DNA of 63,822 nucleotides, counting the filler, from an uncultured Methanosarcinales archaeon (GTDB taxonomy: Archaea; Nanobdellota; Nanobdellia; Woesearchaeales; CAYSVS01), in the NCBI GenBank assembly GCA_964434475.1. It is 10 parts of 10 records of this genome, joined end to end, with 100 filler letters (N's around TTAATTAATTAA, not from the genome) between each part and the next. Parts side by side here need not be neighbours in the genome. Positions count along the whole stretch, not along the records: positions 36,201 to 42,659 come from CAYSVS010000066.1; 9 more parts are not named here. One strand, given 5' to 3'. The notes below the pieces were generated by a model that was not told where the DNA came from, searched no databases, and worked only from the letters and a program-made list of their open reading frames with translations. This document shows positions 6,013 to 60,764 of this stretch, piece after piece (the stretch's first letter is position 1; every line of letters begins with the position of its first letter). Both the position numbers and the translations under genes were made by a program.

Positions 6013-6201
6013 TTTTTGACCACCTTTGATTAGTATAATTTTGTGAAATTCATCTAAATTTTTAGTAAGTTGTCACTGTTAAGTACTAATAGTATTTAAA
6101 TCTTATGGATTTTCACCCCTTTGAAAACCACTCTTTTGTTTCTATTGAGTAGTGGCGATTATATTTAAATCTTTCCTATATCATATTAATATATTTATAT
6201 A

Positions 6202-6801
6202 ATGAACAAAATAACAAATAAAATGAAAATATTAAAAGTTGCTATAAGATCGATTAAAGAAAATAAGAACAACATTAAAATAATCAGCTATCTATTCATA
6301 TTAGGCCTGATTTTAGGCATACTCTACCATTATATGCTTCCTCAGGAGATTATGGAATATCTAAAAGAGATAGTCCTAAACCTTGAAACAAGTTCGGCAA
6401 TAGAAATATCTATTTTCATAATGTTGAATAATATAAAAGTCGCATTATATTCCATGATTTTAGGCATATTCTTGGGAATCGTTCCTATGTTAGGAGCATT
6501 GACAAATGGATTTGTCATAGGCAGCATAATAAGAAAAACAGTCCAACAGACAAGCATGTTAACACTATGGAGACTTTTTCCGCATGGCATATTTGAGATA
6601 CCTGCAATTTTGATAGCTTTCAGCTTTGGATTAAGATTAGGAAAATCATGGATCAAAAAAAATAAAGAAAATATGTTCAAGATAAGCAAAAAAGGTTTAT
6701 TAGATGCAATAATAGAATCTATCAATGTATTTATAATTATAATCCTACCATTACTTATAATAGCAGGAATTATAGAAGGAATATTATTCGGAATAAAATG
6801 A
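6202..6801 (+). CDS. SpoIIM (stage II sporulation protein M)-family membrane protein
   Basis: IMLNN, NGFVIG, PHGIFEIPA, AGIIEG motifs. Confidence 0.85.
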   Translation: MNKITNKMKILKVAIRSIKENKNNIKIISYLFILGLILGILYHYMLPQEIMEYLKEIVLNLETSSAIEISIFIMLNNIKVALYSMILGIFLGIVPMLGALTNGFVIGSIIRKTVQQTSMLTLWRLFPHGIFEIPAILIAFSFGLRLGKSWIKKNKENMFKISKKGLLDAIIESINVFIIIILPLLIIAGIIEGILFGIK

Positions 6802-7654: not shown

Positions 7655-7754
7655 NNNNNNNNNNNNNNNNNNNNNNNNNNNNNNNNNNNNNNNNNNNNTT
7701 AATTAATTAANNNNNNNNNNNNNNNNNNNNNNNNNNNNNNNNNNNNNNNNNNNN
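7655..7754. other. Artificial contig linker (N44-TTAATTAATTAA-N44). Same linker at 15073-15172, 22195-22294, 29190-29289, 36101-36200, 42660-42759, 48967-49066, 54822-54921, 60665-60764.
   Basis: Identical 100-bp spacer carrying stops in all six frames; contig lengths decrease along the window. Confidence 0.98.
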
Positions 7755-15031: not shown

Positions 15032-15204
15032 TAAGGTTCAAATAATATTCTAAATATGAGATTAATCATTCTNNNNNNNNNNNNNNNNNNNNNNNNNNNN
15101 NNNNNNNNNNNNNNNNTTAATTAATTAANNNNNNNNNNNNNNNNNNNNNNNNNNNNNNNNNNNNNNNNNNNNAATATTTAGAGGTTTAGCCAAGGCTAGA
15201 GTTT

Positions 15205-17469: not shown

Positions 17470-17869
17470 TTACTTTCTTCTTTTAGATTTCTTCTTAGCT
17501 GCTTTCTTTTTCTTAGCAGGCTTCTTCTTAGCTGCTTTCTTTTTCTTAGCAGGTTTCTTCTTAGCTGCTTTCTTTTTCTTAGCAGGTTTCTTCTTAGCTG
17601 CTTTCTTTTNNNNNNNNNNNNNNNNNNNNNNNNNNNNNNNNNNNNNNNNNNNNNNNNNNNNNNNNNNNNNNNNNNNNNNNNNNNNNNNNNNNNNNNNNNN
17701 NNNNNNNNNCTGCTTTCTTTTTCTTAGCAGGTTTCTTCTTAGCTGCTTTCTTTTTCTTAGCAGGCTTCTTCTTAGCTGCTTTCTTTTTCTTAGCAGGTGC
17801 TTTCTTCTTAACTGCTTTCTTTTTCTTAGCAGGAGTTTTCTTTACAGATTTTTTTCGTTTCAAAGCCAT
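17470..17869 (-). CDS. Lys/Ala/Pro-rich histone H1-like (Hc2/AlgP-like) repeat protein spanning an assembly gap
   Basis: MALKRKKSVKKTPAKKKK followed by (AAKKKPAKKKK)n and ...AAKKKSKRRK-TAA on both sides of gap 17610-17709; GAGGTG ribosome-binding site upstream. Confidence 0.8.
17491..17832. repeat. 33-bp tandem coding repeat (unresolved; 100-N gap inside)
   Basis: Unit about CTTCTTAGCTGCTTTCTTTTTCTTAGCAGGYTT, repeated on both sides of the gap. Confidence 0.9.
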
Positions 17870-22052: not shown

Positions 22053-22294
22053 CTAATTTAATATTAAATAGAATAATATGAGACCCTCGTAATTCTAATC
22101 CATATCAGAATTACATCCTTTACTGTCCATATTAGCCTATTCAATTGTGAAATTCGATAATTCTGCAAAATTTATTTGATCAAGTTGGTTTATANNNNNN
22201 NNNNNNNNNNNNNNNNNNNNNNNNNNNNNNNNNNNNNNTTAATTAATTAANNNNNNNNNNNNNNNNNNNNNNNNNNNNNNNNNNNNNNNNNNNN

Positions 22295-29189: not shown

Positions 29190-29395
29190 NNNNNNNNNNN
29201 NNNNNNNNNNNNNNNNNNNNNNNNNNNNNNNNNTTAATTAATTAANNNNNNNNNNNNNNNNNNNNNNNNNNNNNNNNNNNNNNNNNNNNACACCTCGCAA
29301 TTTAGTATTCAGTATACATATTTATTCTTTTCCGGATGAACCCCTAAACTGCAAAGATTTTTAAATAAGCACCAAAATCATAGACTAAATAAAAG

Positions 29396-35965: not shown

Positions 35966-36200
35966 TAATTTTTTTTCGCCAAAAAAATAATTCTATAAGT
36001 AATCTTAAAAAATCAAAAAAAATTGATAAAACTAAGGTTAAATTTGTAAAGAGAACTTTGCATAATTGCTGTTTAGCTTAGCTTTTTAGATTAATTGCAC
36101 NNNNNNNNNNNNNNNNNNNNNNNNNNNNNNNNNNNNNNNNNNNNTTAATTAATTAANNNNNNNNNNNNNNNNNNNNNNNNNNNNNNNNNNNNNNNNNNNN

Positions 36201-36292: not shown

Positions 36293-36443
36293 TACATTTC
36301 ACCCCCCTTGTTTTAAATTACTATTTATATAAGAATAAAAGAATAATAAATATATAAAACTTTCTTTAAATACTTTGTATAAATTAACACTTCTTGCCTC
36401 TTCCGTTTTTTACTTTTTATAGAAACTTAAATTTAATTGTAAC

Positions 36444-36463
36444 TAACATCAGGATCCTTGTTA
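36444..36463. repeat. Miniature attC-like cassette junction TAACATCAGGATCCTTGTTA
   Basis: Identical copies at 37426, 55988 and 57439; variants at 56551, 60445 and, reversed, 50403 and 54751. Confidence 0.8.
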
Positions 36464-36654
36464 GTTGCGTCTTTTCTTAGAAAAGAAAAAGAATAGTGCA
36501 ACGATTCACAAGAAAATCCTATATTTTATGTATACCAAATTTTATAACTTTTTGAGTGTTTCACGAAGTGAAAAAATCCCTAAGAGTTATTTTCAAGGGC
36601 ATCTAAACAAAATAGAAAATGCGACACTCAAAGACAAACATTTTAGAGCAGAAC

Positions 36655-37350
36655 TTAAATTTCAAGAAGAAGTGCTTTATGATCAGAAATATTTAAACCC
36701 AAACATGAAAAAGATTTTAATTTAATTTTTTTTGGAATAAGGAAATAATCAAGACTGTATTTTGCAGGCGGATAAGAAATATATTTTTTTATCTGTCTTG
36801 AACAAACATATTCTTTATCTATTAAATTATAAATTATTTTAGGATCTCTTATGTTAAAATCTCCAATAATTAAAGGATTAATATTAAGTCTTTTAGCATA
36901 ACTTAAAGTTTCTTCAAGATGCAATTTACTAAATAAGTCATCTTGAGAATAATGAACTACTAAAATATTCTTTAAATTATTATCTTCGATTTTAATAGAC
37001 AAAATTCCTCTTGTATATTTATCATCAGGATGTTGCTTTAATTTTTTCTTTTTTACTTCTAGAACAGGTATGTTCGATAGTACTGCAATACCTTCGAAAC
37101 AATCAGGATTTTTTGGAGTTTTATTAACTTGATTAACGTCCATTGTTTTTCTAAAAACGCAATGTTTAAAACCTAAAATTTTGTTTAATTGTTTGGCTTG
37201 GTTATTTCCTTTAGAATTAAACCGTAAATCATCTCTTACTTCTTGAAATGTAACAATATCGGGATTATGTTTTTGAATGAACTTAATAATCTTTGATTTT
37301 CTTTTATCAAAATCATTATAATTCCATAAATTCAAATTTAAAATTTTCAT
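36655..37350 (-). CDS. Endonuclease/exonuclease/phosphatase (EEP) family protein; cassette cargo
   Basis: ILNLNLW, PDIVTFQEV, GIAVLS, IIGDFN, LDY, SDH. Confidence 0.9.
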   Translation of the reverse strand: MKILNLNLWNYNDFDKRKSKIIKFIQKHNPDIVTFQEVRDDLRFNSKGNNQAKQLNKILGFKHCVFRKTMDVNQVNKTPKNPDCFEGIAVLSNIPVLEVKKKKLKQHPDDKYTRGILSIKIEDNNLKNILVVHYSQDDLFSKLHLEETLSYAKRLNINPLIIGDFNIRDPKIIYNLIDKEYVCSRQIKKYISYPPAKYSLDYFLIPKKIKLKSFSCLGLNISDHKALLLEI

Positions 37351-37425
37351 AGTCTAACAACTATTTCAATTATTATTTAAGTTTTGCTTTTTATTTAAAA
37401 AATAGGACTCCTTATTTATTGTAAT

Positions 37426-37445
37426 TAACATCAGGATCCTTGTTA
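37426..37445. repeat. Miniature attC-like junction
   Basis: TAACATCAGGATCCTTGTTA exact copy. Confidence 0.8.
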
Positions 37446-37494
37446 TGTGGGGAGACTGCAAGTCGACCGACCAAAGGGACAGTTTGAAAACCAT

Positions 37495-37749
37495 TTACTT
37501 TTTCTTTTCAAAATTTATAAATGAAGCAACTAGTACGGATTCAATTGTTGTGATTAAGATTGCAAAAAAATCTGATGGTCCAGGAAGAAAAAAATCAAAT
37601 AATTTTACAGATCCATTTAGAAATGGACCTAAATCTTTAGGTAAACTAGAAAAGAAGATTTGTAAAATATATCCTATAAATAATAGGCTGAGAAATGAAA
37701 CTACGAATTTTATTATGATTTTTTTATGTTTTTTAAAATTAAGTTTCAT
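37495..37749 (-). CDS. Small two-TM hypothetical protein; cassette cargo (start re-assigned to ATG 37749)
   Basis: MKLNFKKHKK...; the longer ORF-track version runs through the attC-like site; TATA-like TTTATATA about 25 bp upstream. Confidence 0.6.
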   Translation of the reverse strand: MKLNFKKHKKIIIKFVVSFLSLLFIGYILQIFFSSLPKDLGPFLNGSVKLFDFFLPGPSDFFAILITTIESVLVASFINFEKKK

Positions 37750-37805
37750 ATTTGTGAATAGTAATGAGTTTATATAAATTTTTGGGAGGGTTTTCAAATT
37801 GCGTA

Positions 37806-37915
37806 TAACATCAGGATTTAGAGAAGTTTCGAACGAAGTGAGAAATTTGGGGAATAATCGGGAAATCGCTTGGCGATTTAGCGTAGCGACCGATTTTCCC
37901 TCTAAATCCTTGTTA
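37806..37915. repeat. Long (110-bp) attC-like site
   Basis: TAACATCAGGATTTAGAG ... CTCTAAATCCTTGTTA: same ends as the mini junctions, with an extended stem and internal hairpins. Confidence 0.75.
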
Positions 37916-38143
37916 GTTTCGTTTCCCATACGTAAGTGTGGGAAACCTGCGTCCGCAGAGTCGGGAAAGAGGGCGTTCTATCTAATGAGCGAATGCGATA
38001 CATCAAGAACAAGAATTAAAGGGGACAATTTTAATTTAGCAAAGCCAAAGGCTCTTTTAAAAACATATTTAGGAGTTCCAAAAAACTATTTGAATATTCT
38101 TTTAATTGCAGAAATTATTGCTTCAATTAATTCGGCAATCATT

Positions 38144-42659: not shown

Positions 42660-42759
42660 NNNNNNNNNNNNNNNNNNNNNNNNNNNNNNNNNNNNNNNNN
42701 NNNTTAATTAATTAANNNNNNNNNNNNNNNNNNNNNNNNNNNNNNNNNNNNNNNNNNNN

Positions 42760-48888: not shown

Positions 48889-49105
48889 CTACGTTTACTT
48901 CTACTTTTCCGAACCTTGTATTATTTAATATAGGCCTTCCTTTCCAGCATCCTGCGTATGAACCGCNNNNNNNNNNNNNNNNNNNNNNNNNNNNNNNNNN
49001 NNNNNNNNNNTTAATTAATTAANNNNNNNNNNNNNNNNNNNNNNNNNNNNNNNNNNNNNNNNNNNNGCCACGCTGCGCTCTCCTCCTTTCAGTCGTCGGG
49101 GCGTA

Positions 49106-49199
49106 TAACAAGGGATATACGGTTCAGCCCTCGGCTCGGGCTTCACCCAAATTTTTCTTCCACTTCGTTCCAGAAAAACTTCGTATATCCCTAACGTTA
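49106..49199 (+). repeat. Canonical-looking attC site (94 bp)
   Basis: (GTA)TAAC-AA-GGGATATACG ... CGTATATCCC-TAAC-GTTA(AAA) with internal hairpins. Confidence 0.75.
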
Positions 49200-49359
49200 A
49201 AATCAATTATGACTACGGGGCACACACAACTAAAATAATAAAAACGAAAGGAAGGGGCACACTCACTATTGAACTACACTCTAAAATATTTTAATCAATT
49301 GAAATCTAAATTGGTTAAAACAAGAAAATTTATAAATAAATCAATTATTTAGAATAGGA

Positions 49360-49761
49360 ATGGGAAACTGTGATAATTGTGGGAAAAAATTCGGATTTCT
49401 TGGTCCTGCTATAGCACCTAATCTAGGAATTGCAAAAGGGAAAGGTTTTTGTAGCATAAAGTGTTATAGGGAATTCAGCAAAAAGAAAAAAGTTGAAACA
49501 GAAGGAAAAGTAATGGAATTTAAATGCAAATGCAACCAATGTGGAAAAATATGGCATTATTTACCTAAGGAAATAAGCGACCTAAGGACACAACAGATTG
49601 GTAACGCTATGATTGGTGCTAGTATGTGTTGTAATCCATTTGGAGCTCTTTTTTCTAATAAAGCAATAGAATCTAGAAGACAAATAGAAAAATTCAACAA
49701 GTGTCCTGAGTGTGGATCAAGTGATATTAAAAAAGAAGAAGTATGGTATGAGAAAAAGTAA
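49360..49761 (+). CDS. Cys-rich zinc-binding hypothetical protein; cassette cargo
   Basis: CDNCG..FCSIKC, CNQCG, CPECGS. Confidence 0.7.
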
Positions 49762-49987
49762 CCTTTTTGTTATATTATCCATATTTTTAATAAAAGAATT
49801 GCACCAAAAAAGATTGTCTCCAAAATTAAATAAGATAGGAACTCGTTGTCGGTTTTATCCATCTTGTTCAAATTATGGCATTGCTGCGTTAAAGAAATAT
49901 GGTTTTATCACAGGATGGATTAAAACAATTAATAGAATTTGGAGATGTAAACCAAACAATTATGATTCATGTATCGATTTTCCTTAA
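49748..49987 (+). CDS. YidD-like (membrane protein insertion efficiency factor) protein; cassette cargo
   Basis: [17 protein letters not shown]...G......RIWRC.P signature. Confidence 0.8.
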
Positions 49988-50235
49988 ATTTTAGTATTTA
50001 ATCTTCTTCTATCAATTTCTTTAAGAACTCTATTTGAATCGTATGCAATAAGCCAATCAAACCAACCATCTAATCTATCAATATTTAAATAACCTTTTTT
50101 ACGCATAAACTCTAGAAATAATTTTTTATCTTCTTCTATAATGTTTTTTCTTTTTTCATGAGATCTAAGTTTAATAACAAATATCCTAACAGCTTCCCAA
50201 AAAGATTTATTTTCTTCCATAAATAATAATATCAA
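49984..50235 (-). CDS. Small hypothetical protein; cassette cargo
   Basis: 83-aa ORF convergent with the YidD-like gene, inside the cassette arms. Confidence 0.5.
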
Positions 50236-50402
50236 TTTATTACATTATTAAAATTTTCTATTTTGTGTCAGTCTCAAATTTACTGTAAGTGTGCCCCTTG
50301 ACGATTGTCCTTGATGTTTGCTCTTTCGATTGGACGACGGTGTGCCCCTACGTCATAACTTTGCGGACGCAATTTTCCCACACTTCGTATGGGAAAAGAT
50401 TT

Positions 50403-50421
50403 TAACAGGCCGCCGATGTTA
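50403..50421. repeat. Miniature attC-like junction (reverse orientation) TAACAGGCCGCCGATGTTA
   Basis: Reverse complement reads TAACATCGGCGGCCTGTTA. Confidence 0.75.
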
Positions 50422-50583
50422 TTTGCAATTTAGTTTAAGTTTAAACGTTCTTTTAGAAAAAGAACCAAAAGGGGGGATTTTAGTCCTTCGGACATTTTGG
50501 CTCCCTATGGTCGAAATTTAATATACCTGAAAGGCGAAAAAAACAAAACTTTATATACAAATGTGTTCATTTGTATTTTAGGG

Positions 50584-50730
50584 ATGGCTATGGTATCAAA
50601 AAATGTTACTCTAAGAGTAAGTTCTGAACTTTATGATAAGTATAAATTGTATTGTAAAGAAAAGGGTTTATTAGCTTCTAGACAGTTTGAAATTTTTATG
50701 GAATCAGAGCTAAAAAAGAGAAAAAAATAA
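50584..50730 (+). CDS. Ribbon-helix-helix DNA-binding protein
   Basis: KNVTLRVSSELYDKYKLYCKEKG...SRQFEIFM pattern; TTTATATA promoter upstream; leads the operon. Confidence 0.7.
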   Translation: MAMVSKNVTLRVSSELYDKYKLYCKEKGLLASRQFEIFMESELKKRKK

Positions 50731-50731
50731 G

Positions 50732-51583
50732 ATGAAATTTGTAAAAAAAATAAAACCAAAGTCAAAAAATGTAAAAGAACATTTCTTATTTACAGCTAAT
50801 GCTTTAAAGATTTTAAAACAAATTCCAGATAAAAGCATTACCTTAGTTGTAACAGATCCACCATATAATGTTGGATTGAAATATAATACTTACAATGATA
50901 AAAAAGAATGGTCTAAATATTATGAAGACATGGGTTTAGTTTTAAATGAAATTTATAGAATTTTAAAGGATGATGGAAGTTTATATTTGATTAATTATCC
51001 TGAAATTAATGCTAGAACTTTACCTTACTTAGATAATGCAAAATTAAAAATGAAACGATGGTTGACATGGCATTATCCAACAAACATAGGACATTCTAAA
51101 AAAAATTATACAAGAAGTCAAAGATCAATTTTGTTTTGTACAAAATCTGAAGATTACATATTTAACAAAGATGCAATTGTTCAACCCTATAAGAATCCAA
51201 ATGTTGGTAAAATAAAAAAGTTAATTGAAGCAGGGAAAAAAGGAAGAACACCATATGATACATTATCAATGGAAGATATTTTTGAAATGGATAAAATTCA
51301 AAATCCCGATGTTATTAATATAAATTTATTAAAAAATGTTTCAAAACATCGTGCAGGATCAAAAGATAAAACTGCAAAAGATCATCATCCTTGTCAGTTA
51401 CCTAGTTCACTAATTGAAGTTTTTATTAAAGCTAGTAGTAATGAAGGAGATATTGTTTTAGATTGTTTTGCAGGAACTTTTACAACTTCTGCTGCTGCAA
51501 AATTATTAAATAGAAAATCAATAGGTATCGAATTAGATCCTGAATACACTAAACTTGGTCTTGCGAGGTTGAAAAATGAGTAA
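50732..51583 (+). CDS. Beta-class N4-cytosine/N6-adenine DNA methyltransferase
   Basis: TDPPYN catalytic motif precedes HP.Q.P and VLDCFAGTFTT...GIE SAM-binding motif. Confidence 0.92.
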   Translation: MKFVKKIKPKSKNVKEHFLFTANALKILKQIPDKSITLVVTDPPYNVGLKYNTYNDKKEWSKYYEDMGLVLNEIYRILKDDGSLYLINYPEINARTLPYLDNAKLKMKRWLTWHYPTNIGHSKKNYTRSQRSILFCTKSEDYIFNKDAIVQPYKNPNVGKIKKLIEAGKKGRTPYDTLSMEDIFEMDKIQNPDVININLLKNVSKHRAGSKDKTAKDHHPCQLPSSLIEVFIKASSNEGDIVLDCFAGTFTTSAAAKLLNRKSIGIELDPEYTKLGLARLKNE

Positions 51584-53282
51584 AACAAAATATGAACCTA
51601 TTACTAATAAAGTAGGAGAAACTCAAAAAGGACAAATTAAGGTTCATAGTAGAATTATAAAAGATTTGAGTTCAGGTATTTATAGTTCTCCTGCGAGTTG
51701 TATCAAGGAATTAATAAACAACTCATATGACGCTGATGCTTCAAAAGTTGTTGTTAGAGTCAAACCACTAGATGAAACAATAACTATTTTAGATGATGGT
51801 ATTGGAATGAATGCTGTAGAATTTAATAATAGATTTGCTTGGATTAGTAAATCTTCTAAAAGAGGAGATAAAGGAGAAATAGAACTATCAACTATTTTTA
51901 AAAGACCTTTAATTGGAAAAATAGGAATAGGGTTTATTGCAGTTAGTGAAATTTGTGATGAACTTGAAGTGGAATCTAGTAAAAAAGGAGAGAATTTCAA
52001 ATTTATTGCCTCTATTAATTTTAAAAAGTATCTAACAGAAGATATAGAATTTGTTGATCCTGAAACTGGTGAAAAGGGTTTAGTAAAAGGAGAATACGAC
52101 ATTAAAAAAGAAGAAGAAGATAAGGAAGAACATTATACCTTAATCAGATTAAAAAAAATTAAAAAAAATGTTTTAAACATATTTGAAAACAAAAGAGAAT
52201 TATCACAAATAGCTAAAAATTTAGATAAAAAGAATTATGAAACAGAATCTTTTAATTCAATGTTAGAATTAGTTCAATTTAGGAAAGAAAGACAAAAAAA
52301 AATAAGAAACATAGAAAATGATAATGAATATTTAAAATTTATTTATGATTTGTCGTCATATCTTCCAATAGAGTATTTGGAAAATGGACCTATATCTGGA
52401 ATAAAAGATAAAATTATATCTGAAATAAAAAATCAAATTATAAAGTATAAATTTACAGTTGATTTCGATGGATTTTATTTGAAAAAACCTATTTTATTTA
52501 CAGAAGAAGATAGCCACATCAGAAAGGTATATTCATTTAAAGATGAGATTAAAAATACAGATGTAGATATAAAATTTAAAGGATATTTTTATATGCAACA
52601 TAGTTATATCTCTCCTAAAGAATTTAATGGAATTTCAATAAAAATAAAAGGAGTTCCAATTGCAAGAAGATATGGTTTTGAAACAACTTTTATGGACTAT
52701 CCTAATTCTGCAGACATCATTTTTAAAAGTTGGGTTTTTTGCGAGATATATATTGAAAAAGGACTTGAAAATGCTATGAATATTGATAGACATTCTTTTA
52801 GGGAAACACATCCTGAATACATGGCATTGCAAAATTATATTCATAAACTAATGAGAACAAAAATATTCTCGGAAATCGTGCAAAAAAAGATTTATGAGAA
52901 AAATCAAGAATTAAATGAAGAAAAAAAGATTGAAAAAAAGCAAGAAAGAATTGAAAAAATAAAAAAATCATCCTTAGTAACAATTAAATATGAAGAACCT
53001 GAAAAAATAGAAGAAAAAAAGAAAAATGTTTCAAAAACAGACACCAAATCTCCTCATACCAAAGAACAAAAAAACACATTCATTATTCCAAAAAAAGAAA
53101 CAGAATCAGAAAATAAGATTATTTTAAATAAAAAATATTTAGACTCATTTCCTAAAAAATACAGAGATATATTAGAAGAAGTATTGTTATCGTTTGAGAT
53201 TTCAATTAAAGAATCTAAAGGAGACATAGACAAACTTAAAAAAAAATTTTACGAGTTAGTTGAAAATTCTTTCAGGAGATAA
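51576..53282 (+). CDS. GHKL (MORC/Hsp90-like) ATPase
   Basis: IYS....KELINNSYDA, DDGIGM, GKIGIG, T.I.L, NIDR. Confidence 0.88.
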   Translation: MSKTKYEPITNKVGETQKGQIKVHSRIIKDLSSGIYSSPASCIKELINNSYDADASKVVVRVKPLDETITILDDGIGMNAVEFNNRFAWISKSSKRGDKGEIELSTIFKRPLIGKIGIGFIAVSEICDELEVESSKKGENFKFIASINFKKYLTEDIEFVDPETGEKGLVKGEYDIKKEEEDKEEHYTLIRLKKIKKNVLNIFENKRELSQIAKNLDKKNYETESFNSMLELVQFRKERQKKIRNIENDNEYLKFIYDLSSYLPIEYLENGPISGIKDKIISEIKNQIIKYKFTVDFDGFYLKKPILFTEEDSHIRKVYSFKDEIKNTDVDIKFKGYFYMQHSYISPKEFNGISIKIKGVPIARRYGFETTFMDYPNSADIIFKSWVFCEIYIEKGLENAMNIDRHSFRETHPEYMALQNYIHKLMRTKIFSEIVQKKIYEKNQELNEEKKIEKKQERIEKIKKSSLVTIKYEEPEKIEEKKKNVSKTDTKSPHTKEQKNTFIIPKKETESENKIILNKKYLDSFPKKYRDILEEVLLSFEISIKESKGDIDKLKKKFYELVENSFRR

Positions 53283-53284
53283 AA

Positions 53285-54154
53285 ATGACTAAATATATAA
53301 ATAACTCTTCTGAAAAAAACCATATAAGGGAAAAGTGGGTTGAATTTGCAAAATTAAATTATGATGATGAACATGAGTTTTCAATGATAGGATTAACAAC
53401 GGAAACATTAGATGATGTTAAATTATTTTCAGAACATAATTTATTTGATATTACTGAAACTGAAACAGGACAATTAAGATTTAATAAGGGAAAGTTTAAA
53501 TGTTTTGAAAGTGATGGCTCAACCTGCAGAAAATTAACGGAACTTTTACCTAATGAATTTGCAATTCATAGTGAAATAGGATTTGAAATAGGGAAAGAAT
53601 ATAATAAAGTTTTTGTAGAATTGCATCAGAGTAAAATATTTCCTTGTGATGTGATCAATCTTGATTTCACAGGTTCTATTTCCAATGTAACAAAGAGGAA
53701 TATATTAGAGGTTCTTAATTGGATTTTTAAAATTCAAAATAAATTTCAAAAAAATTTTTCATTATTTTTAACATTTGCAAATGCTAATGGAACAAATGAA
53801 GAAACCATATTTAATAAATTTGAAGAAATAATTCAAGAGAATATTTCTAATGCACATACAAATTTTAGAAATATGTTTGAAACTAAGTTTAATTCTTTAC
53901 AAAATATAAAAAGCAATCATAATCAATTTTTAGCAACAGGAATTTCTAAATATTTAGTTAAATTCTCATCAGAAAACAAATTTAATTTGAAAAAATATGA
54001 CTTTTATTATTATGAAAAAACGAGACATAATATGATTTCATTATTATTCAATTTTGAATTTTCTAATTTAACAATTCCTCAAATTGATATATATAAAGAA
54101 GATTGTTTGAAATGTTTAGATGACATTAAGAAGGTGACAACAAATGAGCAATAA
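53285..54154 (+). CDS. Hypothetical protein, possible SAM-methyltransferase-like Rossmann fold
   Basis: CFE and CDVINLDFTG, LFLT, YYY...M pattern; tightly coupled in the operon. Confidence 0.5.
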   Translation: MTKYINNSSEKNHIREKWVEFAKLNYDDEHEFSMIGLTTETLDDVKLFSEHNLFDITETETGQLRFNKGKFKCFESDGSTCRKLTELLPNEFAIHSEIGFEIGKEYNKVFVELHQSKIFPCDVINLDFTGSISNVTKRNILEVLNWIFKIQNKFQKNFSLFLTFANANGTNEETIFNKFEEIIQENISNAHTNFRNMFETKFNSLQNIKSNHNQFLATGISKYLVKFSSENKFNLKKYDFYYYEKTRHNMISLLFNFEFSNLTIPQIDIYKEDCLKCLDDIKKVTTNEQ

Positions 54155-54575
54155 TAAAATTTCAGGAGATTTTGGAGAACAAGAAGTTGTTGATTTAGTT
54201 CCTTGTCCTAATTGTAAAAAGAAATTAATGCTTTTACCAAAAAATTATCCTCTTTATGATTTACAATGTACTGGTTGTTCTTTTAGAGTTCAAGTTAAAA
54301 CTAATAATTCAAAACCAAAATCTGAAATATTTGGTGCAGGTTGGGAAATAATCGATAAAGTTTTGAAATCTGGTTTTATAATGCCCCCTTTAATTGCTAA
54401 TTTTAAATGGATCGAGAAAGGTATTGAACATCAAAAAATCATTTTTTATCCTTTTATACCTAAGTCTAATCTTAAGAAAAGACAATTATCATCTACTGCT
54501 AGAAGAGCAAACTATAAAATGTTTAATTATATTGGTCTAGATAAAATTCCAAGTTTTGTTTTATATGAAAAATAG
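54144..54575 (+). CDS. DpnI/Dam-replacing-family PD-(D/E)xK nuclease domain protein
   Basis: G.FGE, CPNC, N.P..DL.C..C...QVK, GA, KR.LS.TARRA; no C-terminal winged helix. Confidence 0.75.
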   Translation: MSNNKISGDFGEQEVVDLVPCPNCKKKLMLLPKNYPLYDLQCTGCSFRVQVKTNNSKPKSEIFGAGWEIIDKVLKSGFIMPPLIANFKWIEKGIEHQKIIFYPFIPKSNLKKRQLSSTARRANYKMFNYIGLDKIPSFVLYEK

Positions 54576-54750
54576 CTACTTCGCCTTTCTTCTTGTCCTT
54601 GATGTGTCGCATTCGCTCTTTCTTATCGGACTAAAATCCCCCGTCCTTCGGACATATAGACTCCCTTTGGTCGAAATAATATAAACTTAAACTAAACTCT
54701 TCGGTTTCCCTTCGGGACGTTGCACTAAACCTCGGTCTTGCAGACGCAAC

Positions 54751-54770
54751 TAACAAGGATCCCGACGTTA
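54751..54770. repeat. Miniature attC-like junction (reverse orientation) TAACAAGGATCCCGACGTTA
   Basis: Reverse complement TAACGTCGGGATCCTTGTTA, two substitutions from consensus. Confidence 0.8.
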
Positions 54771-54921
54771 GGCGTAATTTTTGTCCCACCTCGCAGAACT
54801 TTGTTCAGCTGATTTCTCAGANNNNNNNNNNNNNNNNNNNNNNNNNNNNNNNNNNNNNNNNNNNNTTAATTAATTAANNNNNNNNNNNNNNNNNNNNNNN
54901 NNNNNNNNNNNNNNNNNNNNN

Positions 54922-55987: not shown

Positions 55988-56007
55988 TAACATCAGGATC
56001 CTTGTTA
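55988..56007. repeat. Miniature attC-like junction
   Basis: TAACATCAGGATCCTTGTTA exact copy. Confidence 0.8.
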
Positions 56008-56550: not shown

Positions 56551-56568
56551 TAACATCGCGCGCTGTTA
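56551..56568. repeat. Miniature attC-like junction variant TAACATCGCGCGCTGTTA
   Basis: Conserved TAACATC and TGTTA ends with a different self-complementary core. Confidence 0.75.
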
Positions 56569-57438: not shown

Positions 57439-57458
57439 TAACATCAGGATCCTTGTTA
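57439..57458. repeat. Miniature attC-like junction
   Basis: TAACATCAGGATCCTTGTTA exact copy. Confidence 0.8.
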
Positions 57459-57674
57459 AACTCTCCGTTAGGATTGATTTTTAGTGCAACGTTCCGAAGG
57501 AAAAAATCAAAGTCGAGAAAGAGGGCGTTCTATCGAATGAGCGAATGCGATATATAAAAATAAACATATATGGGTGAAATAAGAGATATCTAGTTTTTCA
57601 TATTATGAGTTTAGTTTTTAATTTATATTACTTATATCCTTAGATTTATAAATTAGTTTTTATTTCCTAAATAA

Positions 57675-58541
57675 ATGAGTAGTAAAATTAAATATGGACC
57701 TCATTTATTTCCAGGTGGTCCATTATATTATATTCAATCTGAAAAAAAATATATTCAGAAAGTACATAATGAAATCATGCTTAGTTTTGCAATTGCACTA
57801 AATGAAAATGAAAATGGTTCTATAGCTCAACAAATTAAAATAAGAGATTCTGATAGATTGCAATTATCCTTTATGAATTATGGAAATACAGAACTAGTTT
57901 ACTTGCTTAATATTAATAAACAAAAATATACTCTTTTGATTAATCCACCGCATATGGATAAAACAGTTATAAAAAATCAGTTTCAAAATCTTCGTCGACT
58001 TCATAATAATGATTCAAGATTTATTGTTAATGCACATTCTTTTTTTGAAAATGAAAAATATGCTATGTATCTTACAGAATATATAGACAATGCCTTGTGC
58101 GTTGGAAATGAAGAACCCAATGTGCTTGGAGTTTGGAATCCACTCCCTCATTATCATTTTGAAGAATTTAATAGAGAAACAAGCGATTTAGTTAATATAT
58201 CTAGAATTGCACATATTGTGAATTTATATGATGATCTAAATCAAATAGGGATTTCCAAAACTCAAATTAGTGGAAATGATTTTATGTTAACACAAAACAC
58301 TGATTTTCAAGATTTACAGTCAATTATTGATAATACACGAATAATTGGCGCAAGAGACTCTATTTCTATACCTTTTGAACATTATATTGAATTATTAAGA
58401 GAAGAGTTTCAAGTCGCTACCTCAAGAACAGATATTGATGTTCTAGAAGGAAGACTGAAAATAAATCATCATTCGAAAATGCCAATTTCAAAAGATATAA
58501 TTAATGAAGGTATAGAACAAGGATACATGTTAAGAAAGTAA
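57675..58541 (+). CDS. Hypothetical protein, possibly a divergent kinase-like fold; cassette cargo
   Basis: G..ELVY, YLTEYI, GNDF patterns give a weak resemblance only. Confidence 0.55.
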   Translation: MSSKIKYGPHLFPGGPLYYIQSEKKYIQKVHNEIMLSFAIALNENENGSIAQQIKIRDSDRLQLSFMNYGNTELVYLLNINKQKYTLLINPPHMDKTVIKNQFQNLRRLHNNDSRFIVNAHSFFENEKYAMYLTEYIDNALCVGNEEPNVLGVWNPLPHYHFEEFNRETSDLVNISRIAHIVNLYDDLNQIGISKTQISGNDFMLTQNTDFQDLQSIIDNTRIIGARDSISIPFEHYIELLREEFQVATSRTDIDVLEGRLKINHHSKMPISKDIINEGIEQGYMLRK

Positions 58542-58753
58542 ATATTAATAAAATCATTCTTAAATGTATAATATGTCTGTTAAACGTCCCGAACGAAGTG
58601 AGAGCGCAGCGTGGGTCGAGGAATTTTGAAAAAATTCCGAAGAAGTTCAGAAAAGACTTTGCTATCGAGCGAACAAAGTGAGCCATCAAGCAAATACATC
58701 AAGAGCCCCATTCCACAAGAACATTTATATATTTATTTAAATAATTTAATCAT

Positions 58754-59554
58754 ATGCAGAACTCAAATAAATTATGGTATCGATCAAGAGGGTTAGAGAT
58801 ACTAGAATCTAGATTTGGTAATAACTCCATTCAAAATTTTATTGAGAAGAAGTCGATTCATCAAAATGAATTTAGAATACTTGAAATTGGTTTTGGTGAA
58901 GGTAAGTGCCTGATTGAACTTAGGAAAAAATATCCTAACAAAAATATATTATTATATGGCATTAATGACAAAAAGAAAGGCAATATGCATTCTAAAATAG
59001 ATTTTTATAATAATGCTGAAAAATTTGGCCATCCAATTCTAAAAACCAACTTACCAAAGCCATTCTTTTATGATGTTGGAAAAGGTCTCAAATTTGAAAA
59101 TAATTATTTTGATTTGATTATTAGTCAGGTTTGTATTCCATATATTGATAATAAAGCATTTTTATTTGAAGAAATCTGGCGAGTCTTGAAAAAGAATGGA
59201 AAAGCTTTCTTACAAATAGATTCTGAAACTAAAGAAGGATATCCTGATTTCATGAAATTATGTAAAGATACTCCTCGGATGGTAATCTATCAAAATGATA
59301 AAATTATTCCAACAAAAAAAATATTTGATGTTGCTAAAAAGCAAGGATATAATATTAATTTTTCTAGGCAAAAAAATAAGAACGAAAGTTTTATTATTAC
59401 AATGGAGAAAAATCTTAACAAGAAACTAAATTTTAATTTGCTTTTTGATGGCAATTCAACATTATATCTCACCAAGTTAAAGGATACAGACGAGTATAAA
59501 AAACAAAGTGGGGTTTGGTGGGGTACAAGAAGTGTTTTTAAGGTTAAAAAATGA
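58754..59554 (+). CDS. Class I SAM-dependent methyltransferase; cassette cargo
   Basis: ILEIGFGEG, FDLIISQ, EEIWRVLKKNG. Confidence 0.88.
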   Translation: MQNSNKLWYRSRGLEILESRFGNNSIQNFIEKKSIHQNEFRILEIGFGEGKCLIELRKKYPNKNILLYGINDKKKGNMHSKIDFYNNAEKFGHPILKTNLPKPFFYDVGKGLKFENNYFDLIISQVCIPYIDNKAFLFEEIWRVLKKNGKAFLQIDSETKEGYPDFMKLCKDTPRMVIYQNDKIIPTKKIFDVAKKQGYNINFSRQKNKNESFIITMEKNLNKKLNFNLLFDGNSTLYLTKLKDTDEYKKQSGVWWGTRSVFKVKK

Positions 59555-60396
59555 CAGAAAAATTAATACAACAAATACTGAAGGATAATCCCTTTTCAGA
59601 TTTTTTAAAGATTAAAGAGATAAAATCATTAGCAGGACATGGCGCAATTTCTGGAGAATCGTATCTAGTTATAGATGAACATAACAAAAAGTATAAATTA
59701 AGGTTATGTTCAAAAACTAAACAAGCAAAACGAATTGAAAGAAATGTCAAAATATTACCTTATGCATTCCCTAAATTTTATGGCAGAGAAAATAACTATG
59801 TTCTATTTGAATGGGTTGATGGTGATCTTTTTTATGATGTTCTATCTAAACCAATTCCTAATGAAGTTTACTATCAAATGGGAAAACTTGTTGGAGAAGC
59901 TCATGAATTAAATGATATTGATGAATCTAAATCCGCCGATTCATTTTTTGATTCTATGATTAGAAATATTTGTGATGGAGAACAAATTGATAAATCTTTT
60001 ATTGATAAAATTACTAGAAAATATAAAGAGTTAAGACATAAACTAAAAATTGACATAGTCTTAGAAATTAACGATATTCATCCTAGAAACTTCATAATCA
60101 AGAATCGAACAAATCCCAAAAAAACAAAAATTTACTTCGTTGATGAAGATGGTTTTGGGCATAAAATAAAAGGTTTAGGACTGGCAAAACCCTTTTTTAT
60201 TGAAGGTTTAATTAAAACGAAAAAGCAAAAAGATTCTTTTTGGCGAGGTTATAATGAACATCACAGTAATGATTACTTTGACAAAGATTATCAAACATTT
60301 GTGACATTTGTCCAGATTGTTCGTTCAATGGCAGCAAGATCTAGAAACAATAAAGATATATCTGATTTAATAATTATGATAAAAAAATACATCTAG
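59551..60396 (+). CDS. APH/choline-kinase-like phosphotransferase; cassette cargo
   Basis: YKLR, FEWVDG, GKLVGEAH, DIHPRNF (Brenner motif), VDED. Confidence 0.8.
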   Translation: MTEKLIQQILKDNPFSDFLKIKEIKSLAGHGAISGESYLVIDEHNKKYKLRLCSKTKQAKRIERNVKILPYAFPKFYGRENNYVLFEWVDGDLFYDVLSKPIPNEVYYQMGKLVGEAHELNDIDESKSADSFFDSMIRNICDGEQIDKSFIDKITRKYKELRHKLKIDIVLEINDIHPRNFIIKNRTNPKKTKIYFVDEDGFGHKIKGLGLAKPFFIEGLIKTKKQKDSFWRGYNEHHSNDYFDKDYQTFVTFVQIVRSMAARSRNNKDISDLIIMIKKYI

Positions 60397-60444
60397 TGGA
60401 ATGGGGCTCCTTCTAAAAATTAAAAGTCTTTTTTGAATTGAGTT

Positions 60445-60464
60445 TAACATCGGGATCGCTGTTA
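60445..60464. repeat. Miniature attC-like junction variant TAACATCGGGATCGCTGTTA
   Basis: Conserved ends, variant core. Confidence 0.75.
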
Positions 60465-60664: not shown

Positions 60665-60764
60665 NNNNNNNNNNNNNNNNNNNNNNNNNNNNNNNNNNNN
60701 NNNNNNNNTTAATTAATTAANNNNNNNNNNNNNNNNNNNNNNNNNNNNNNNNNNNNNNNNNNNN

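Follow-up and report, generated by a model that had tools for sequence, protein, structure and literature searches.

What are the junctions, some of about 20 bp and others several times as long, that lie between genes in the DNA of an uncultured archaeon, and are the short ones and the long ones the same kind of site? The question is raised by a stretch of 63,822 nucleotides (hereafter the window) from the metagenome-assembled genome (MAG) GCA_964434475.1, in which the 20-bp mini junction TAACATCAGGATCCTTGTTA recurs beside long junctions of 110 and 94 bp. The textbook example of sites that are recombined in the form of folded single-stranded DNA (ssDNA) is the integron, and an original prediction on the window had tied these junctions to integrons. 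We consider it fairly probable that a single family of recombination sites exists here in two states, long and mini, and that its sites bound mobile cassettes in this Woesearchaeota-type (DPANN) archaeon and are served by a Xer-like enzyme. We judge the whole to be an integron-like cassette system of Woesearchaeota-type archaea, probably run by Xer and standing outside the integron family.

Junction sites of the window

The window joins 11 pieces out of 10 contigs (C60-C64, C66, C67, C69, C70 and C93), ordered by length. C numbers are contigs of this genome and L numbers are fetched MAG or metagenome loci, L162 and L003 being C41 and C111 of this genome. The junctions are the following, scored with the covariance model R1 built on the alignment A1 (both presented below).

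37806 to 37915 (C66:1606-1715), plus strand: long junction 1, 110 bp; fold z -4.57; R1 66.9 bits; in alignment A1
49106 to 49199 (C69:40-133), minus strand: long junction 2, 94 bp; R1 81.8 bits; stem AGGGATATACG/CGTATATCCCT
36444 to 36463, plus strand: mini junction, 20 bp, TAACATCAGGATCCTTGTTA exact; R1 24.9 bits
37426 to 37445, plus strand: mini junction, 20 bp, exact; long junction 1 begins 360 bp downstream
50403 to 50421, minus strand: mini junction, 19 bp, centre GGCGGCC; absent from the original prediction
54751 to 54770, minus strand: mini junction, 20 bp, TAACGTCGGGATCCTTGTTA, 2 mismatches
55988 to 56007, plus strand: mini junction, 20 bp, exact
56551 to 56568, plus strand: mini junction, 18 bp, centre GCGCGC; absent from the original prediction
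57439 to 57458, plus strand: mini junction, 20 bp, exact
60445 to 60464, plus strand: mini junction, 20 bp, centre GGGATCGC, halves mismatched, 3 mismatches to the 20-mer

At up to three mismatches the 20-mer has six matches in the window, four of them exact, against none in 100 shuffles, and ten genome-wide. Long junction 1 was described originally as the mini junction with about 90 bp at its centre, and the sequence bears this out with 90 extra central bases: it reads TAACATCAGGAT, 88 nt and ATCCTTGTTA. Its parts are TAAC-A, a 2-nt TC bulge, an 11-bp stem (AGGATTTAGAG/CTCTAAATCCT), a three-way junction (GAAGT, hairpin 1, ATTTGG, hairpin 2) and T-GTTA. Long junction 2 is a homologue with similar, not identical, ends (TAACGTTAGGGAT...ATCCCTTGTTA); it lies 40 nt from the end of C69 and has near-identical copies in metagenome loci L135 and L056. 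The reverse orientation attributed to it is an artefact of contig concatenation, since the two long junctions lie on different contigs (C66 and C69) and their relative orientation is therefore arbitrary.

As ssDNA, the plus strand of long junction 1 folds at -23.9 kcal/mol (z -4.57) and the minus strand of long junction 2 at -17.7 kcal/mol (z -4.17), and in both cases none of 200 shuffles equalled the value. Two open reading frames (ORFs) across long junction 1, of 144 and 117 aa, are without a Pfam match and were treated as spurious.

A conserved fold on one strand

Alignment A1 contains 24 non-redundant long sites, three from this genome, seven from three Woesearchaeota MAGs and 14 from metagenome contigs; duplicates (L030, L057), false matches (L059, L105) and a site of an unpublished genome (L010) were omitted. 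The outer helix consists of TAAC, a single A-T or G-T pair and, past a 2-nt bulge confined to the 5' side, 11 further pairs. Its cells are all paired (100%) in 24 of the 24 sites (A1 columns 7-24 with 153-168), the first seven stem pairs having served as a selection filter. Nine of its 16 pairs have changed on both sides, and its covariation score is 0.517-0.519, against 0.16-0.20 in shuffled alignments (none of 500 reached it) and 0.06-0.14 with a slid partner. The last four stem pairs and hairpin 1 are free of the filter; the former include 35 cells changed on both sides, and the latter (AAGT...ATTT) is 93.7% paired. The helices of the interior are separated by the near-invariant junction residues GAAGT and ATTTGG(G/A), and there is a second, variable hairpin branch, so that in the modelled fold the interior is a conserved three-way junction.

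The TAAC...GTTA core is present in the 24 aligned long sites and also in the mini sites. Every site has the invariant core TAAC-(A/G)...T-GTTA, apart from a compensated change on C41: the two long sites of that contig (C41:4680-4833 and 6124-6245; locus L162) have TAAG...CTTA, changed on both sides at the core C-G pair, and may mark a second specificity class. With R1, mini sites are recovered as the model with its interior deleted. A scan of this genome gave seven long sites, on C66, C69, C65, C79, C41 (two) and C111, and together with about 15 mini sites this makes more than 20 sites that bound cassettes in this genome. An outer stem formed by each site with its own flanks in the array was considered and dropped, own-flank pairing of 4 nt being found in only 51% of A1 cells.

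The two strands of a long site are far from equivalent. R1 gives 68.6 against 22.1 bits for the two strands of L016:4269-4354 and 85.0 against 17.5 bits for those of L012:14794-14915, and this asymmetry is due to the interior and to the TC/TT bulge that adjoins the R box. GNA-triloop hairpins, counted when they had at least three closing pairs, number 19 on the TAACATC strand of the 24 interiors and one on the complement; around 77 sites the counts are 60 against 11 in the 120 nt downstream and 19 against 12 upstream. Units such as GCGAAGC and GCGTAGC were reportedly described by Hirao and co-workers in the 1990s as exceptionally stable DNA mini-hairpins. By crude ORF calling, the strand that folds is in most cases the one complementary to mRNA, which recalls the bottom strand of integron attC. 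This position opposite most genes, together with the triloop bias, argues for a role of the fold as ssDNA.

Cassettes and their boundaries

The sites divide the arrays into cassettes, many of which have two ends that match each other. Of 40 adjacent site pairs, 16 show perfect complementarity between the 4 nt that follow GTTA at one site and the 4 nt that precede TAAC at the next, whereas the two flanks of one site show it in 1 of 83 cases and random pairs in 4.5%. The 40 pairs come from this genome and from MAG and metagenome loci, and include the duplicate L019/L025 and the false site C70:2454; were the latter dropped, two misses would become one match. Sites overlooked by the regular expression and recovered by R1, such as L025:3451 and L025:5470, explain some further misses. 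Moreover, homology between different arrays starts at the first base after GTTA or stops just before TAAC. These breaks and the split arms place the cassette boundary at the edge of the core. Complementary ends across a cassette are a hallmark of integrons.

With such a boundary, the 4-5 nt following GTTA would pair, in an excised circle, with the 4-5 nt preceding TAAC at the far end of the cassette, and inverted arms of 9-10 bp would be rebuilt around the site. The suggestion in the original prediction that mini sites rely on external arms fits this arrangement, in which the joined cassette ends give arms of just that kind.

Within each array the sites have one orientation, in the order mini-long-long-long in L016, long-mini-mini-mini-long-long in L012 and mini-mini-long in C66; C66, C69, C79 and C65 each read mini...long in one orientation. 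The claim of shared ends, with long and mini junctions as members of a single family, thus agrees with what we found, namely the same arrays, the same orientation and intermediates from 16 to 169 bp. The cargo is typical for cassette arrays and includes methyltransferases, MazEF, a restriction-modification-like set, nucleotidyltransferase/HEPN pairs and an endonuclease/exonuclease/phosphatase (EEP) nuclease. The cassettes and the module delimited in the window are as follows.

36464 to 37425, minus strand: cassette with a 231-aa EEP-family gene (36655-37350, minus strand)
49200 to 50402, plus strand: cassette with YidD-like and small ORFs; first and last 4 nt complementary (AAAT/ATTT)
50422 to 54750, plus strand: cassette with a restriction-modification-like set (N6_N4 methylase, HATPase_c_3 protein, DpnI-like)
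57459 to 60444, plus strand: three-gene cassette (288 aa, methyltransferase, APH-like); ends form the 5-nt inverted repeat aactc/gagtt
37916 to 38020, plus strand: hairpin-rich non-coding module directly 3' of long junction 1, common to other cassette starts

The 360 bp from the mini site to long junction 1 (37446-37805) contain only a 110-aa low-complexity ORF without a Pfam match and are possibly a gene-less module.

The same downstream module can follow either type of site. The module after the mini site C70:2518 and that after a long site of L016 are 93% identical over 100 bp, and the modules after a long site of L129 and the mini site L029:8001 are 86% identical over 250 bp. It had been proposed to look for the same cassette with either junction in relatives; what is common to both types is the non-coding end modules (also C65 long and L029:6795 mini, 76% over 117 nt), not the genes. 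A short Logan contig (X1/X3 at 36454), in which a long-site interior is joined to the right end and downstream start of the mini site at 36444, fits this sharing of flanks. Logan-contig depth over the module at 37916-38020 is 34-70 against about 9 alongside, and modules next to sites can be taken as repeated in the community, since their depth is 4-8 times that of their surroundings.

Hairpin-rich modules occur right after GTTA (37916-38020, 36464-36560 and 57459-57560 in the window, 60-120 nt elsewhere) and belong to few families across genomes, exemplified by ...TTTAGTGCAACG... and ...GAGGGCGTTCTATC.AATGAGCGAATGC. In addition, a conserved AAATTG-like motif (AATTG/TATTG) is found 6-10 nt upstream of every site, on one side only and 4 nt ahead of TAAC (for example 37796-37801 and 36434-36439). 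In gene orientation it marks the start of the next cassette, before A/T-rich promoter-like sequence.

A probable passage from long to mini sites

Site lengths are 16, 17-19, 20, 21-23, 55, 69-96, 110-138 and 158-169 bp, and the 55-bp site (L031:677) is a plain hairpin with a 19-bp stem. The centres of mini sites are short covarying palindromes such as GGATCC, GAATTC, GCATGC, GGGCCC and GCGCGC. Of the 27 distinct centres, 15 are made up of a prefix and a suffix that both come from a single known long stem, a share that is 6.7% among shuffled centres; several of the 12 unexplained ones are probably chance sites. The point at which the stem is broken varies (k = 1-5), and one long type (GGGCTTAAG...) fits minis of two sizes, 18 and 23 bp. 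The break points fall at self-complementary dinucleotides, which are direct repeats within the palindrome, as in AGG[AT]T...A[AT]CCT giving AGGATCCT and GG[GC]TT...AA[GC]CC giving GGGCCC. The centre matches, the breaks at repeats and the two mini sizes from one long type favour repeated interior deletion, and to judge from these sequences mini sites are most likely deletion derivatives of long sites. The original prediction had derived mini sites from full attC sites, or the reverse; the kinship is supported by the match of mini centres to long-stem alleles, and the direction is what we infer. Mismatched halves are found in the sites C70:5524, L019:8628, C88:314, L158:167 and L019:6665.

The opposite order deserves to be weighed, in which the mini is the primary site, a duplex dif-like Xer site, and the long form is a mini with a structured central insertion that blocks duplex recombination or switches it to a single-strand mode. 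The prefix-plus-suffix relation is symmetric and formally fits insertion equally well. Joined to the 4-nt ends of its own cassette, the 20-bp mini comes to 28 bp; its two arms of 11 nt agree at 9 of 11 positions and enclose a spacer of 6 nt, and 11-bp inverted arms around a 6-bp spacer are the geometry of dif as given in PMC2958812. The exact 20-mer also occurs on at least 12 MAG contigs labelled Woesearchaeota or Nanoarchaeota, with differing flanks, and all long interiors are homologous (GAAGT...ATTTGG), as expected of copies of one element. We nonetheless judge this order unlikely. Mini sites are not of one size but of 16-23 bp, and only the 20-bp form has the 11-6-11 geometry, which is found neither in the minis of 16-19 and 21-23 bp nor in duplex long sites; these varying lengths led us to reject one Xer/dif interpretation for the whole set of mini sites. 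The variable break point and the long type that fits two mini sizes speak against it as well. Beyond its first 4-5 bp the stem is free to covary between sites, whereas an insertion element has terminal repeats that are fixed, and a duplex spacer has no need of palindromic covarying centres (GGATCC, GAATTC, GCATGC, GGGCCC). Deletion from long to mini therefore remains the order that we prefer.

Comparison with integrons

Several features of the sites are those of attC. The TAAC...GTTA core corresponds to the inverted R''/R' core with AAC...GTT, and in 16 of 40 pairs the cassette begins with bases that complement the R'' of its own site, as a crossover inside R' would leave it. Like integron attC sites and the archaeal clusters of attC sites lacking integron-integrases (CALINs) treated in PMC9668308, the sites bound co-oriented accessory cassettes and are imperfect palindromes with an AAC/GTT core. 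A putative crossover at the core edge, asymmetry of one strand and resemblance of sites within a lineage are further points in common with attC sites.

The long site at 49106-49199 had been said to look like a classical attC, and in this the geometry does not agree. In place of the R/L spacers of about 5 nt, largely unpaired, there is one A-T or G-T pair, a one-sided 2-nt bulge next to the R box and 11 unbroken pairs. Extrahelical L-box bases are lacking, the 11-bp stem being without an unpaired cell in 24 of 24 sites (the first seven pairs filtered), and it is the bulge that replaces them. Whereas attC has a variable, unconserved terminus at about 50-150 bp, the interior here is the conserved three-way junction GAAGT...ATTTGG. 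Long sites have 55-169 bp, and the frequent minis of 16-23 bp are too short for attC. Also unlike integrons, conserved non-coding modules flank both sides of the site. The tie to integrons proposed originally thus survives in the logic of the cassettes and in the split arms (16/40 against 4.5%), not in canonical attC geometry or in an IntI.

These differences bear on the possibility that the sites are ordinary attC sites of a CALIN, whose canonical IntI is missing from the assembly or acts in trans and whose decayed members are the minis. Long sites fall in the attC length range and, with the core, the split outer arms, the co-oriented arrays and the typical cargo, would suit this explanation. 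Woesearchaeales MAGs with attC clusters lacking IntI are moreover described in PMC9668308, where Data S1 has six Woesearchaeales rows and those shown have 2-12 attCs and 0 IntIs. We find it quite improbable all the same. The ten attC sequences given in Data S9/S10 of that work (PMC9668308) have spacers of about 5 nt between R and L boxes, against the bulge, the unbroken stem and the conserved interior found here. Neither the family motifs nor the six Woesearchaeota-locus contig prefixes were found in the searched text of the supplement of PMC9668308, which is weak evidence given that most attC sequences are unprinted there, so that some of the present sites may be among its calls. With the integron integrase model TIGR02249, no IntI was found in this genome (best 35.7 bits against a cut-off of 265 bits) or in the four distinct array-bearing relatives (best 122.8 bits, the matches skipping model positions ~185-237), all of these assemblies being fragmented.

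Comparison with Xer-dependent elements

The attP site of CTX-phi is a forked hairpin. This phage and integrative mobile elements exploiting Xer (IMEX) have a folded single-stranded attP that recombines with duplex dif by one strand exchange (PMC3442271). By analogy, the host Xer could recombine a long site, whose hairpin consists of two half-sites in inverted orientation, with a dif-like duplex site of short length. Were a circle with such a hairpin to integrate at a mini site, the insert would end up between a long site on one side and a mini site on the other, matching the mixed arrays. The present case differs from CTX-phi in its many small tandem cassettes, its archaeal host and an interior that is a three-way junction and not a forked hairpin.

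In Acinetobacter plasmids, pdif sites alternate in orientation around the modules that they flank. Such dif modules shuffle between replicons without a dedicated integrase, and they resemble the cassettes in being small accessory modules with toxin-antitoxin or resistance-type cargo and Xer-type sites of 28 bp (PMC6449649, PMC13141974). They differ in that each array here has a single site orientation and that pdif has no long hairpin state.

With archaeal XerA/dif, the machinery that resolves chromosome dimers (PMC2958812), the system has in common Xer-like recombinases without the IntI insertion, present in the relatives, and the 11-6-11 arrangement that the circularised 20-bp mini would have. 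There, dif is a single chromosomal site, against more than 20 cassette-bounding sites here (PMC2958812). A literature search on Xer-run cassette arrays in DPANN found no description. The system is best filed as a new variant among cassette-capture systems, integron-like in its working and outside the integrons in site geometry and integrase.

Candidate recombinases

Xer-like genes for proteins of 272-313 aa were found in 5 of 5 relatives searched, one of which (G064) is unpublished, no claim being built on it. For six such genes the coordinates place three less than 400 nt from a contig end. The assignment of a Xer-like enzyme is a lead, not a result. Another candidate was found near long sites in two places.

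446 to 1471 of C111 (locus L003), minus strand: fusion of an AEP-TOTE primase and a partial tyrosine-recombinase domain, with one in-frame TAA
9488 to 10531 of L019, minus strand: second copy of the fusion

In both L019 and C111 some 140-150 nt separate the fusion from a long site. Its rarity led us to reject it as the general enzyme, since among 151 genomes of the order it was found in two, in one of these as a partial match. A recombinase on C40, of 212 aa, was likewise set aside as the cassette enzyme, having the catalytic domain only and a different context.

A number of observations weigh against the recombination-site reading, and we gather them here. This assembly has no full-length Xer-like gene, only the C40 recombinase and the broken C111 fusion. 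Of eight recombinase loci in relatives, six with a full-length Xer-like gene, only two (L158 and L155) have sites near the recombinase: in L158 four sites lie 4.6-7.6 kb upstream of the gene, and in L155 a weak 23-bp TAACATC...TATTA site (17.6 bits) lies about 60 nt upstream and overlaps an AATTG-N4-TAAC hairpin on the opposite strand. No recombination event was seen in the assembled Logan contigs of four runs. As many as 24 of the 40 cassettes are without a perfect 4-nt complement, some owing to missed or false sites. The first seven stem pairs of A1 are those by which its sites were selected. The bias in gene orientation is moderate, with 42 ORFs opposite the folded strand and 24 along it (crude ORF calling), and the fold may instead play a role as RNA. 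Finally, the retention of the exact 20-mer in many MAGs with differing flanks fits deletion scars poorly, and most minis, at 16-23 bp, are unable to share a single duplex geometry.

Joints in Logan contigs that could be taken for excision, such as 36463 to 37959, were rejected, having short sides (22-40 nt) and lying inside repeated modules.

That the junctions are no recombination sites at all but transcript structures (terminators, elements of 3' untranslated regions) or miniature transposon remnants would suit their intergenic, hairpin-rich position on the 3' side of most cassette genes, but is very improbable indeed: Rfam gave no family match, neither at the gathering score nor with E allowed to reach 1, the GNA triloops lie opposite most genes so that mRNA would bear their complements, the complementary cassette ends and the homology breaks exactly at GTTA would be left unexplained, and the 4-nt arms vary by cassette, unlike transposon ends.

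Host, distribution and other features of the window

The MAG has 1.50 Mb in 148 contigs, with 33% G+C and 97% completeness. The host is of DPANN type. Its site family has a patchy distribution: the exact 20-mer occurs in 4 of 60 relatives of the same order and in neither of two genomes that share its genus. Metagenomes scanned with a loose pattern gave 122 loci, mostly chance matches, of which about 20 had true sites after a closing-stem filter. The 20-mer variant TAACATTGGGATCCTTGTTA in bacterial contigs (L013, L021, L022 and L023, of Eubacteriaceae/Clostridiaceae, L027 and L028) looks like a chance or unrelated occurrence and was excluded; four of these matches sit in one identical coding-looking context without the AATTG motif or hairpin modules.

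The remaining features of the window are these.

7655-7754, 15073-15172, 22195-22294, 29190-29289 and 36101-36200: linkers N44-TTAATTAATTAA-N44
42660-42759, 48967-49066, 54822-54921 and 60665-60764: further linkers N44-TTAATTAATTAA-N44
17610-17709: gap of 100 N within contig C62
42889-48888, minus strand: ORF of 1999 aa that occupies contig C67
41847-42551: ZnuA and ZnuC at the end of C66

The pieces between linkers are separate MAG contigs, and inferences on neighbourhood across linker points are therefore void. A truncated ABC-3 (ZnuB-like) gene lies at the end of C51 (C51:8673-9233), which suggests that C66 and C51 abut; a zinc-uptake operon with a Fur regulator would then lie between two cassette-array stretches.

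Proposed mechanism and implications

For the recombination-site reading we propose the following course. The TAACATC strand of a long site would fold as ssDNA and be the recombined strand, as with the bottom strand of integron attC. Mini sites would arise when the hairpin interior is lost by deletion within the stem between self-complementary repeats (AT...AT, GC...GC). A 20-bp mini joined to its own cassette ends has the dif-like 11-6-11 arrangement and may still recombine as duplex, whereas minis below that length may recombine weakly or be fixed in place. Catalysis would probably fall to a Xer-like tyrosine recombinase and not to IntI. A further step is possible but doubtful, namely that DPANN archaea have here a third gene-capture platform, in which a single family of sites serves a Xer-type recombinase in two ways inside the same array, as folded long hairpin and as 28-bp duplex mini, and the loss of the hairpin is a switch of mobility.

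The long strand, its complement and the 28-bp duplex are concrete substrates for biochemistry. In one lineage there is a graded series from a 169-bp three-way-junction hairpin to a 16-bp core, in place between cassettes and apparently without IntI, which bears on the origin and decay of folded sites and on whether the integron design exists beyond the IntI family. If the arrays are indeed run by Xer, integron-style gene capture would have evolved or would persist on chromosome-resolution machinery, with consequences for how integrons arose from Xer-type recombinases and for the exchange of defence and modification genes in ultra-small archaea.

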